The translations under genes were made by a program, and so were the position numbers. Positions 3,525 through 28,259 of a stretch of DNA of 35,786 nt are shown piece after piece (positions within the stretch are counted from its first letter, which is position 1; each line of letters starts with the position of its first letter). The notes under the pieces are model-generated. The model searched no databases. It was not told the origin of the DNA and saw nothing but the letters and a program-made list of their open reading frames with translations. The stretch is taken from positions 1 to 35,786 of the forward strand of contig CAXHJY010000550.1 of assembly GCA_964016885.1 (NCBI GenBank). Reading direction: 5' to 3'. The stretch comes from Eledone cirrhosa. Taxonomy: Eukaryota.

Positions 3525-4143
3525 TATGTGTGTATATATACATACATATATATATATATATATATATATATATATATGTATGTATATATATATGTATGTA
3601 TGTATTTATATATATGTATATATATATATATATAAATATATATATATATATATATGTATGTATATATATATATATATATATGTATATATATATATATATA
3701 TATATATGTGTATGTATGTATTTATATATATGTATATATATATATATATAAATATATATATATATATGTATGTATTTATATATATGTATATATATATATA
3801 TATATATATATATATATATATATGAATATGTATATATATATACATATGTGTGTGTGTGTGTGTGTGTATATATATATTTATGTATATATATGTAAGTATG
3901 TATGTATATATATATATATATATATATATATATATATGTATGTATGTATGTATGTATGTATGTATGTATGTGTGTGTGTGTGTGTGTTTGTCTGTATATA
4001 TATTTATGTATATATATATATATATGTATATATATACATATATATATACATGTACACTTATATATATATACATATATACATATGCACATATACATATATA
4101 TATACATGCACACACATATATATATATATATATATATATATAT
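3525..4143. repeat. Compound (TA)n/(TATG)n microsatellite
   Basis: Seen directly. Confidence 0.95.
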
Positions 4144-4324
4144 AACGAAGGAAATGAGGTAAGGAACCAAGTGGACCATAACGCACCAAAGTACTCAATA
4201 CTTAGGGTAGTAGAGTGGGTAATAGGAACAAGTAAGACCCCGACGGCTGAGCTCAAGCCGTTTCGACGGCTAATTCTGGACGAAACGGCTTGAGCTCAGC
4301 CGTCGGGGTCTTACTTGTTCCTAT
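4143..4324. mobile_element. Truncated HHR-bearing (Penelope pLTR-like) element with an inverted partial copy
   Basis: Perfect 44-bp inverted repeat (4222-4265 / 4281-4324) with a 15-nt spacer. 4143-4281 is the reverse complement of a homolog at 24644-24783. Each arm holds the 3' half of an HHR (GAAA-CGGCT..AGCCG-TC-GGGGT). (TA)n on both sides. Confidence 0.8.
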
Positions 4325-4660
4325 ATATATATATATATATATATATATATATATATATATATATATATATTTATCTATACACACATACAGTTGTATGTGT
4401 GTGTACGTGTGTATGTATACATGAATGTGTGTACGTGTGTATATATACATGAATGAAGGTGTTTAGAGTTGCGTGTTCCTTTAGATATTTGTGTACTTGT
4501 GTGTGAACACTCCCACACCTTCTACCTCATATATTTGAGTGTGTGTGTATGTGCGTGTGTGCGTTTCTGGCTGCGTGTTTGTTTATGTATGCGTTTTTAT
4601 ATTATGTGTATGTAAATTGTCATCGTATGTGTTGTAAATGTGATTCTATCACATAAATGT

Positions 4661-4826
4661 GTATATATATATATATATATAGAGAGAGAGAGAGAGAGAG
4701 AGAGAGAGAGAGAGAGAGAGAGAGAGAGAGAGAGAGAGAGAGAGAGAGAGAGAGAGAGAGAGAAAGAGAGAGAGAGAGAGAGAGAGAGAGAGAGAGAGAG
4801 AGAGAGAGAGAGAGAGATAGATAGAG
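4661..4826. repeat. (TA)n-(GA)n microsatellite
   Basis: Seen directly. Confidence 0.95.
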
Positions 4827-5419
4827 AGCGGACGAGAGAGAGAGAAAGAAAAGTACACACACGTATATTGCTTTCAGTCCAAAGGCTGCGGTCATGCTGT
4901 GGCAAATAAAGGTATATAATAAATATATGCAGTTCAGTTTATAAGTATGATTGCATTCATATATAAAAATCAATACATACTTCGTCTCTTTGCGCGCGCG
5001 CGCATGTGTGTGTGTATGTATATGCGTGTATATTTTGAGTAGAGTAAATAAAACTAGCGTAAATCACTGACATGTGTAATGGAAATTATATATAAACAAG
5101 TTAAAATCTATATTTTCACGGTGACATATATCACATACACTCTTCGCTCGTATACGTTATACATTCACTCCCTTTACTTATACACACCATTCATATATAC
5201 AATATATATATACACCCAACACATATATAGCGTACTTATGTACACCCTCTATAGTTTTCAAACCATACAAATGTAGACACTAGATATTGGAAATCAACAC
5301 ATACACACAATATACATGTGTACGTGTATATGTCTCGGGTTATATGTATGTAAGCAAGTTTATGTGAATATGTATGTGTATATATATATATACATACATT
5401 ATATACCAGTAATACACTA

Positions 5420-5460
5420 GGTATTTCCTGGCCTTGTGCCAAAAGTAGAAACAATTATTA
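5420..5460 (+). mobile_element. SINE family A 3' tail fragment
   Basis: cctggccttgtgccaaaagtagaaacaatt matches the tail of the SINE at 15327-15507. Confidence 0.75.
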
Positions 5461-25139: not shown

Positions 25140-25182
25140 ACGATGTACTAGTTTCAAGCTTATTAGCTATCGTCAGCATCGT
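25140..25182 (-). ncRNA. Minimal type I hammerhead ribozyme, unit A
   Basis: ACGATG-CTGACGA-T-AGCT-AATA-AGCT-T-GAAA-CTA-GTA-CATCGT. Confidence 0.88.
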
Positions 25183-25571
25183 ATACCTTCCTGCCAGATG
25201 ATTGAAAGTCTGAAAGTATATACTTTCCTTATGCATATTAATGACTGAGCAGCCTAATTTGCATATCGAGTGAGTTAATCGACCGGGCGCACCGAAAATG
25301 ATAAATGGGAAAAATTAAACGAAATTTCATTTCTCACTCTTAGTACGGCTGTTACTTAAATATAAGTATGTATACGTACATACATATATGTATACAGACG
25401 TACAGTAGTATGTATATATATACATACATGCATGCACACATATACATATGTACGTACGGATTTACCGAACATTTATTATAATGCTCGGTTTGTTTGTAAA
25501 CAAACATCCCGAATTAAGCCGTACAGTGTTTAGCAACCACCGTTGTCCTTTTGTTCAACACTGACAAAGGA

Positions 25572-25615
25572 ACGATGTACTAGTTTCTCAGCTTATTAGC
25601 TATCGTCAGCACCGT
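25572..25615 (-). ncRNA. Minimal type I hammerhead ribozyme, unit B
   Basis: ACGGTG-CTGACGA-T-AGCT-AATA-AGCT-GA-GAAA-CTA-GTA-CATCGT; 1 nt longer before GAAA. Confidence 0.82.
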
Positions 25616-25980
25616 ATACCTTCCTGCCAGATGATTGAACGTCTGAAAGTATATACTTTCCTTATGCATATTAACGGCTGAGCAGCTTAATTTGCATATC
25701 GAGTGAGTTAATCGGCCGGGCGCACCGAAAACGATAAATGGAAAAAATGAAACGAAATTTCATTTCTCACTCTTAGTACGGCTTTTAATTAAATATAAGT
25801 ATGTATACGTACATACATATATGTATACATATATGAAATTTCGTTTCATTTTTTCCATTTATCGTTTTCAGTACGCCCGGCCGATTAACTCACTCGATAT
25901 GCAAATTAGGCTGCTCAGCCGTTAATATGCATAAGGAAAGTATATACTTTCAGACGTTCAATCATCTGGCAGGAAGGTAT

Positions 25981-26023
25981 ACGGTGCTGACGATAGCTAA
26001 TAAGCTTGAAACTAGTACATCGT
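25981..26023 (+). ncRNA. Minimal type I hammerhead ribozyme, inverted unit
   Basis: ACGGTG-CTGACGA-T-AGCT-AATA-AGCT-T-GAAA-CTA-GTA-CATCGT; predicted cleavage after 26017. Confidence 0.88.
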
Positions 26024-28259
26024 TCCTTTGTCAGTGTTGAACAAAAGGACAACGATGGTTGCTAAACACTGTACGGCTTAATTCGGGTTCTTTGTTTACA
26101 AACAAACCGAGCATTATAATAAATGTACGCTAAATCCGTACGTACATATATATATGTGTGCATGTATGTATATATATACATACTACTGTACGTCTGTATA
26201 CATATATGTATGTACGTATACATACTTATATTTAAGTAACAACCGTACTAAGAGTGAGAAATGAAATTTCGTTTCATTTTTTCCATATATATATATATAT
26301 ATATATATATATATATATATAAATATAGGCGAGTTTTTGTGTGTATGCATGTGTATGTGTGTGTATATATATATACACAAGATATGCACCTTCAGACATA
26401 CACACACTAACACACTCACATATACATACATGCATATGTATATAAAACACACACACGTGTGTGTGAAAAGATATCGTATTTTACAAAAACAATACAAAAA
26501 ATTGGAAACATATGTGGAGAAGTTTATATATATATATGTATTTATTTATATATGCAGAGAGAGAGAGAGAGAGATGTAAAATCCCGACCGTGGCGTCAAG
26601 AAATTAACAAACCAACGTTTGTTTTATCTTGGACTGTTTCAGATTCGCATCTGAAAAGGGATAACAGCCCTGATATATCAAGCCAAAATACTCTGGGGGA
26701 AAGATTACTTAACTTTATTTACCATCATTTGCCTTTCGTATTTTTCTACCGCATTGTACCGGCGTTCAAATAACTTATAGGTCATTTACAGCATATTTCA
26801 CAATTATGATTGTGTTAACTACTTTATATATATATATATATATATATATATATGCACACGGCTGTATAAAGCTAACTGACAGCGGTTCCTTTACATTGTC
26901 AGTCACCTTGCTGGTGCGCCATTTCGAGTATTAAGATGGTATTGCCGTTGTAATGCCAGTTTGCGCAACACGTTAAACAACCACTGCGCTAGTAAGATGT
27001 ACGTGAGGTGATAGCAGACCTAAGAATGGACAGGAAAATTTACGGGTGTTTTTCGACAATAAATTGATAAATACGCAAATCATTACGACTAGAAATAAAT
27101 AGACAATAGATAACATGTAAAATGTGCAGCACTCGTTAGAAAAATATGTCTGGGTTGTGGGTGGAGCTGGAGAAAAGAGGTCTGCTAATATATATATATA
27201 TATATATATATATATGTGTGTGTGTGTGTGTGTGTGTGTGTGTGTGTACTCACACATAGAATGATGCCTTCATAAATGTATACACACACACACACACATA
27301 TATATATATATATATATATATATATATACGCACACACACAAGTTTATAAACCTTTACATGCAAACCTATATAAACATACACACACGGGTACATGTAGTTG
27401 TGATTGCGCCTGTTTATGTGTGTGTGTGTGTGCACGTGCGTGTGTGTGTGTGCATGTATGTTTTTTATGTATGCACGTGTATGTGTATGTAGGTGTGTTT
27501 GTGTGTGTAAAGAGAGATTACGTTAGAATTGGAGGAGCTGTTAAATATTTGAGTAGGTGCAGGTATAAGAAGGAATGAACGAAAGAAAGACAGCAATGTG
27601 TAAGAAATATAAAACCAAATTGTCAAGAAACCGAATGGAGTGTTGTTATGTTACCTACAAATAGTCACGCATCGCTCCTCCATATATATATATATACATA
27701 TATATATATATATACATATATATATATATATGCATACATGCAGATAAATATATACATACATACACACACACATATATATATATGTATATGTATATATATA
27801 TATATATATATATATTTATATATACACATATATATATGTGTGCGTGTGTATTTATTATGTGCATGTATGCATATATATATATATATAGTTTGTGTATTTT
27901 CATATATATATATGGAGAGAGACAGAGAAAGAGAGAGGAGAGGGAGAGAGCGATAGAAAGAACCAGAGAACTGTGGAGTAAAATGTAGATAAACATCGTA
28001 GAGAGAGAGAGAAAGAGTGAGAGAAGTATTTAGAGTGGGGGAAGAAGGCGGGTGTAAAAGGAAGAAGAGAAAGAAGAATATAAAATCAATGTAATAAATA
28101 AATGAGGTAACAATATATTTCAAGTTCACTTTATTCCTCCATGACAGTTTCATACAGTCGTTACGTTTTTCAACTCAGCTGACTTCCCTCCTACTTCTCA
28201 CTCTCCTTTCACACTTTTCTATTATCTTCTCTAACCAATTGGCCAATTTATGCCCCCTT

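Follow-up and report, generated by a model that had tools for sequence, protein, structure and literature searches.

The window analysed here comprises 35,786 nucleotides (nt) of contig CAXHJY010000550.1 from Eledone cirrhosa (assembly GCA_964016885.1) and contains three elements related to hammerhead ribozymes (HHRs), located at 4143–4324 (family A), 22722–23118 (family B) and 24933–26286 (family C). In each of them, two arms read outward from a central junction and run into (TA)n. What are these elements, and how do two arms come to be joined head to head between two TA tracts? A reading of the sequence alone had proposed that both ends of a break in a (TA)n tract primed reverse transcription internally, and that a single machinery of the Penelope-like element (PLE) type moved several non-autonomous ribozyme RNAs into microsatellites. 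Self-comparison and comparison with full-length copies locate the two-armed elements at these places. A and B are probably truncated ends of autonomous PLEs of the Hydra clade and C is probably a non-coding repeat, with both cut ends likely priming at two fixed internal sites of the template.

Structure of the two-armed elements

In family A, the long arm (4142–4281, minus strand) comprises the 3' half of the hammerhead from stem II onward, reads through the short site and continues as an 80-nt tail to the long end, which enters (TA)n via TAT. This arm matches the pseudo-long terminal repeat (pLTR) of the autonomous A unit described below at approximately 95%. The short arm (4281–4324, plus strand) contains the GAAA, stem III and the cleavage triplet, and stops in (TA)n 17 nt past the predicted cut plus TAT. 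The ribozyme is incomplete in both A arms, which start inside stem II or at the GAAA; the full family A ribozyme possesses a U3-A8 or C3-A8 core.

In family B, the short arm (22722–22934, minus strand) contains a complete type I hammerhead (outward-reading core 22927–22795, predicted cut at 22795, fold z −4.1), ends in (TA)n via TAT and matches the pLTR of the autonomous B element at 97%. Two untemplated bases separate it from the long arm (22937–23121, plus strand), which starts 3' of the ribozyme and lacks it, carries a 136-nt tail and ends in (TA)n via ATA. In family C, the short arm (24932–25829, minus strand) consists of two tandem units of approximately 430 nt and a stub ending in (TA)n, with a minimal type I hammerhead per unit and no open reading frame (ORF). 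The long arm (25833–26286, plus strand) consists of one unit and a 57-nt tail, ending in (TA)n via AT. The C cores at 25176–25146 (minus), 25609–25578 (minus) and 25987–26017 (plus) all read outward. The HHRs that the sequence-only reading assigned to all three elements are present as outward cores in B and C, whereas the A arms hold parts only and the right B arm has none. An Rfam scan of the window gave no hammerhead in the best 150 of 224 matches, those shown being of the low-complexity microRNA type. Meanwhile, the outer unit of the C element carries 14 private differences against 7 and 5 in the other units (P 0.025), a weak hint of a mixed multimeric template.

Fixed ends in TA tracts

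A census was seeded with exact anchor matches listed from the start of one contig (A 100, B 66, C 68), which gave 80, 46 and 58 distinct arms or insertions, respectively. Partner ends were assigned by end markers, BLAST partner-calling being noisy for the AT-rich families B and C. The ends fall at two fixed sites per family, a short and a long site, with a spacing of 80 nt in A, 136 nt in B and 57 nt in C. All six sites are internal to the template, as natural copies read through them. The arms do stop at different points of the element, as had been noticed, but these points are two fixed sites per family and not arbitrary ones.

Classed ends are followed by (TA)n in 75/78 cases in A, 44/45 in B and 39/51 in C, above a background of 13% of the window (4,601/35,786 positions) and 3–10% of the fetched loci. 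Among the first 100 listed matches per family, opposite-strand neighbours within 1 kb are outward-reading without exception (A 20/20, B 18/18, C 5/5; 43/43 together), and 62/69 are so within 13 kb; the orientation is non-random. Furthermore, pairs with both ends seen combine one short and one long end in 55/62 cases in A, 25/25 in B and 19/19 in C. This amounts to 99/106 pairs against an expected fraction of 0.5 (P 3e-22). By inspection, the seven A exceptions are explained by a nearby partner that was overlooked, by separate insertions lying next to each other or by deletion of the tail. Independent site choice by two equal subunits, which predicts short plus long in half of the pairs, is excluded.

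TA tracts and palindromes are trouble spots, and the inversions could in principle be sequencing or assembly artefacts at such tracts; the whole of the locus tested was spanned by no contig. Artefacts of this kind would not produce family-specific fixed ends and the short-plus-long rule, and contigs of other public runs, including one under another organism label, cross an A junction to the short end and have TA loose ends at that site. Such an origin is extremely unlikely.

In A and B, template and tract most commonly overlap by 3 nt (either TAT or ATA), as seen at 41/68 short and 48/73 long ends in A and at 18/30 short and 24/34 long ends in B. At most of the others, the overlap breaks off early where the sequence departs from the one reference employed. 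By comparison, an overlap of at least 3 nt is found at 3% (A) and 9% (B) of random template positions. The C ends show, by eye, CCAT or CCATTTAT. The entry into (TA)n through TA/AT microhomology is upheld, more weakly for C. In family A, the sequence just past the short site is predicted to form a stem with the sequence just past the long site; folding of the short-to-long region gave no hairpin common to A, B and C.

Families A and B are ends of autonomous elements

Judged by motifs, pLTR features and the fold of the B reverse transcriptase (RT), A (4143–4324) and B (22722–23118) are the truncated ends of two different autonomous Hydra-clade PLEs. Exact anchors number 22,581 (A), 5,223 (B) and 3,174 (C) in the 3.0-Gb genome, and 0 for the reversed controls. 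Family A is the end of a 3.53-kb unit that occurs in tandem arrays with an ORF of 717 amino acids (aa) and has at least 130 scored matches at 92% or more. Head-to-tail arrays of at least four intact 3.5-kb units are seen in loci L301–L304 and L310–L311. In the case of B, long insertions contain an ORF between the arms, and an 810-aa ORF is intact in L227 and L229. In the tandem copies L228 and L238, the B end reads on into this ORF, which B both precedes and follows. The window itself holds no A or B ORF on comparison with natural full-length copies.

The A and B proteins are 46% identical over 475 aa, and the non-coding ends of the two families have no common sequence. Both proteins carry RWR (at 37), DKT (at 115/117), YRDD, a CxCx5C linker, VY..YIG, and CxxC and CxH in the C-terminal domain. 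The protein model of B (predicted local distance difference test, pLDDT, 85.9) has telomerase RTs as its top fold matches (Foldseek E 3.5e-9; VIA Z 17.1, root-mean-square deviation 5.6 over 292 residues), and a PDB sequence search gave only a weak match to a retron RT (E 0.003). In the predicted endonuclease domain, the pattern of VY-x13-YIG, R and N is conserved in the alignment of homologues. Pfam applied to five ORF pieces gave nothing usable, including no GIY-YIG match, and a whole-model fold search of B had no GIY-YIG among the matches listed, the aligned region being the RT only. A single-sequence model of the endonuclease domain alone reached a pLDDT of 48, too poor for a fold search.

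PMC8557442 describes the Hydra clade as PLEs with a C-terminal endonuclease (EN+), an inverted truncated copy, a one-sided tail, (TA)n targets and hammerheads; the families listed in its supplement include a Hydra family from a cephalopod and one in which an inverted 5' copy is present. A and B share with this clade a single ORF with RWK-like (alignment column 39 is K in 41/73 and R in 23/73 homologues), DKT, CxCx5C, CxxC and CxH motifs and a hammerhead in the pLTR. They also share the location in (TA)n, the partial tandems, the inverted 5'-truncated copy and the tail at one end. Several features differ from the clade as described there: the unit is longer, with a tandem period of 3.53 kb in A and a length of more than 5 kb in B, which has a microsatellite-rich 3' region, instead of the less than 3 kb given there as a general, though not diagnostic, trait, and the tails measure 57–136 nt across families A to C instead of 30–40. 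In addition, the stem II regions extend to 54 nt (A) and 115 nt (B), and the A core is U3-A8 or C3-A8; the U3-A8 variant has been described for PLE hammerheads in PMC4209133, which also reports hammerhead pairs on opposite strands 100–700 bp apart. The Hydra-type N-terminal motif pattern has 1,873 matches in the genome against 29 for the control, and among the 30 of these loci examined (L321–L350), at least seven distinct Hydra-type N-termini occur.

Family C, family D and the junctions between families

Family C (24933–26286) looks like a non-coding tandem hammerhead unit, that is, a non-LTR retrozyme. Its arrays consist of units of 430–480 nt (a 433-nt period in the window), up to 5–6 in number, each with a type I hammerhead core as in retrozymes, and no C-encoded ORF occurs in the tandem arrays of the fetched loci; the RT fragments adjoining C in L113 and L265 are separate insertions. 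C shows no similarity to A or B except low-complexity matches, and no parent pLTR was found for it in A, B or the 30 Hydra loci. Like the metazoan non-LTR retrozymes of PMC7229834, C is built of tandem units that code for no protein and carry a single type I hammerhead, and it coexists with PLEs. Its range from monomers to multimers resembles that reported there and in bioRxiv 10.64898/2026.07.22.740005. In both sources, mobilisation of retrozymes by PLEs is argued from co-occurrence and pLTR similarity, to which C adds an insertion signature of head-to-head arms with short and long ends in (TA)n. Moreover, the layout of its ribozyme resembles the Hydra hammerheads in the PMC8557442 supplement. 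Because C follows the same rule while encoding no enzyme, we infer that it borrows one of the Hydra type; of the three families, C alone is a plausible candidate for mobilisation in trans.

A fourth family, D, absent from the sequence-only reading, is represented by a two-armed element at 24795–24899. It is formed by a 40-nt long-end arm (minus strand) and a 67-nt short-end arm (plus strand), which do not overlap and both end in (TA)n. In the fetched loci, 11/11 D pairs are short plus long, and 40/42 D ends lie in TA. In L113, a D long-end arm is joined head to head to a truncated Hydra RT frame, which makes D the probable terminus of a further autonomous Hydra family.

Head-to-head patterns counted genome-wide amount to 15,674 for A–A and 37 for C–C, against 0 for C–A and 0 for C–B among junctions within 60 nt of both anchors. 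One chimera, in L305, joins three C units (long end) directly to an A arm (short end) and keeps the rule. At L122:800–1420, an arm runs from divergent A into 23 nt of C tail and then joins a C arm, which suggests a template switch between families. In the complex locus L118, at 150–560 and 2050–2700, C stands head to head with a piece of the endonuclease from a further Hydra family; this junction occurs twice, in inverted orientation.

A single PLE enzyme shared by all three families, each being a non-autonomous ribozyme RNA, would account for the same geometry in A to D, for the lack of an ORF in C, and for the C–A chimera and the arm switching from A to C sequence. However, A and B both encode a protein of their own in an intact ORF, the two proteins being as distant as stated above, and this autonomy refutes the idea for both; their non-coding ends are unrelated, and C–A and C–B junctions are missing beside the C–C and A–A ones. 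It could be true of C at most and, for all three, is quite unlikely. What the sequence-only reading held about the elements belonging to different families stands. Its PLE-type origin is likewise upheld, in the form that the A and B termini belong to elements with their own intact Hydra-type RT–endonuclease ORF, the endonuclease being predicted. The one machinery it envisaged for several non-autonomous RNAs is not upheld, given two autonomous families and at least seven Hydra-type ones. Autonomous PLEs sharing the termini, which it anticipated, exist for A and B, and none was found for C in the 30 Hydra loci examined.

Relationship between the two arms

Within the context of family A, 55 close pairs were reduced by one duplicate and one mis-pair to 53. 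Of these, 13 have the short arm extending further 5' and 17 the long arm, and in 23 the two are equal; 81/106 arms start 9–26 nt before the GAAA, in stem II. The two arms belong to one subfamily in 40/42 pairs (shuffle mean 14.3, maximum 25), a test that left out one parsing error and 10 unclassifiable rows, among the dropped being L173, which looks discordant by eye. Among 33 B pairs, of which 12 were chosen out of the best hits, an unshared middle is carried by the short arm in 12, by the long arm in 7 and by both in 1, and the shared parts are mostly 98–100% alike. The two arms of an insertion seem nearly always to share a source, be it a single RNA or sister RNAs, from which it would follow that each autonomous family acts mainly in cis.

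The likeness of the arms could also reflect a one-ended insertion followed by fold-back, the inverted arm arising by self-primed copying of either the first arm or an antisense RNA (PMC3846280). Consistent with this are B arms 99–100% alike, A arms of the same subfamily, 23/53 near-symmetric A pairs and many junctions that are small palindromes. A fold-back copy must nest in its template, however, and non-nested pairs refute it as a general route. In the window's B element, the ribozyme is confined to the short arm and the tail to the long arm; the D arms do not overlap at all; the short arm is the longer one in 13/53 A and 12/33 B pairs; and a two-family chimera exists. Fold-back is unlikely as the explanation of these elements, and could still make some symmetric copies.

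The central junctions fall into 46 distinct classes in the 53 unselected A pairs, and the window's own A junction is found in 11/30 best-hit loci, across three subfamilies. If the inverted units were copied whole from palindromic masters, as in miniature inverted-repeat transposable elements (MITEs), such recurrence would be expected, and the best matches to A and B do span the whole inverted unit at 88–98%. The recurrence of the junction in three subfamilies indicates instead that it re-forms. The diversity of junction classes, arm lengths ranging from tens of bases to several kilobases including the ORF, and unequal termini that differ by a fixed tail likewise make this origin very unlikely. 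The short palindromes here are PLE ends, not MITEs or microRNA hairpins.

Proposed mechanism of insertion

The layout is best explained by internal priming from both ends of a cut, as we infer in agreement with the sequence-only reading. The predicted GIY-YIG-type domain would nick both strands of a TA tract; one 3' end would pair with 2–5 RNA bases at the short site, and the other would do so at the long site, 57–136 nt downstream, leaving the one-sided PLE 'tail'. Both cDNAs would run toward the 5' end of the RNA and usually stall early, in the case of A inside stem II of the hammerhead, and the junction between the two truncated cDNA ends would then form with little homology or none.

In LINE-1 twin priming, two target ends prime on one RNA and an inverted 5' segment is joined by microhomology; overlap between the arms is absent there, and the position of the second site varies. 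The elements described here differ in that overlap of the arms is usual, neither site varies and both arms read outward from the junction.

Earlier publications already describe head-to-head inversion, a tail at one end only, targeting of (TA)n and internal priming on both strands. In PMC11167929, the Poseidon PAc enzyme, predicted to act as a dimer, cuts and extends both strands of an AT-rich target in vitro, and reverse transcription starts internally at two sites whose spacing equals the genomic tail. The two internal sites and a tail equal to their spacing are the same here, with the difference that TAT or ATA is common to the genomic ends and the target, and that each site is used a single time. 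PMC3846280 describes Penelope of Adineta vaga with head-to-head inverted pLTRs, a tail on one of them and little cross-mobilisation between families, which resembles the arms and rare cross-family junctions observed here; there, in contrast, 8–10 bp target duplications occur and self-priming is favoured, instead of (TA)n targets and often non-nested arms. PMC8557442 states the origin of the PLE inverted copies and one-sided tail as unresolved, a question that the in vitro work of PMC11167929 answers only in part, and the available portions of PMC8557442 do not quantify strict short-plus-long pairing. Neither Hydra nor ribozymes are mentioned in the available portions of the main text of PMC13282606. 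A literature search, in which few subscription papers were covered, found no short-plus-long rule, no TA microhomology at both sites and no such retrozyme signature.

Several observations weigh against priming of both cut ends at two fixed sites. The census consists of exact-match, hence young, copies from the first 27–84 Mb of one contig. Classed ends without a partner end in the DNA fetched number 16 in A, 20 in B and 32/51 in C; several partners of the unpaired A and B ends lie kilobases away, and some unpaired C ends have decayed inverted stubs, the others nothing. In the empty-site comparison, no tested contig spanned the whole of locus L023, and no empty site was recovered. As for microhomology, the automated score of C is weak (5 nt at 9/36 short ends, the long ends being mostly unscored because of poly-T variation), the RNAs of all three families are AT-rich, and the fixed sites amount to six independent site choices, not hundreds. 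The Poseidon PAc start sites (PMC11167929) have no target homology and show no strand difference, in contrast to the pairing and asymmetry proposed here. The endonuclease fold is unconfirmed by Pfam or models, and no helper of C appeared in 30 of the 1,873 Hydra N-terminus loci, none of which has C as its pLTR. Concerning the template, conversion between inverted repeats could raise the concordance of the arms. The two discordant pairs among 42 in A and the one chimera mean that one RNA cannot be the sole route and that two RNAs can occur. Either a single RNA used twice or an asymmetric complex holding two sister RNAs would fit.

The integration of Hydra PLEs may, more tentatively and with slightly less than an even chance, be obligately asymmetric. 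One complex would set the two TA-tract ends on one and the same RNA, at two fixed TAT/ATA sites that each serve a single time, and retrozymes would copy these sites as parasites. The tail and the inverted copy would then be the normal product and not an accident, and C would provide direct genomic evidence of PLE enzymes moving retrozymes. Most of this is known biology, namely further members of the Hydra clade and a retrozyme, to which quantitative constraints on an open mechanism are added, from a genome in which one family has more than 15,000 head-to-head junctions, intact ORFs are numerous and four families follow one rule. The rule narrows the models, since independent site choice and fold-back do not fit it. 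Simultaneously, exact RNA sites and targets are now named for a biochemical test, and a retrozyme with a PLE insertion signature makes the proposed PLE–retrozyme partnership testable.

Other features of the window

An older family A long arm lies at 24577–24787 (plus strand), at 85% to the autonomous A unit and with a partner arm not identified. It contains a complete U3-A8 hammerhead (24596–24684), which folds as a three-way junction (z −3.2). The A, D and C insertions adjoin at 24577–26286 with only TA tracts between them, and the same stacking is common in the fetched loci. This side-by-side arrangement is consistent with repeated insertion into tracts from earlier events, each insertion leaving two TA tracts as targets for the next.

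The window is rich in microsatellites, which dominate the repeat-finder output. Degenerate hammerhead-like cores are located at 31749–31833 (minus strand, A-like) and 20384–20415 (plus strand), and further ones, by eye, at about 12281–12306 (plus strand) and 8030–8056 (minus strand). A fragment of a RT of the long interspersed nuclear element (LINE) type, recognised by eye at 34270–35786 (minus strand), runs off the end of the window and adjoins a 1.8-kb TA-rich tract. In addition, a repeat of about 200 nt has two similar copies, by eye, at 1365–1560 and 2995–3200, and an inverted piece near 7240–7430 appears related to it.

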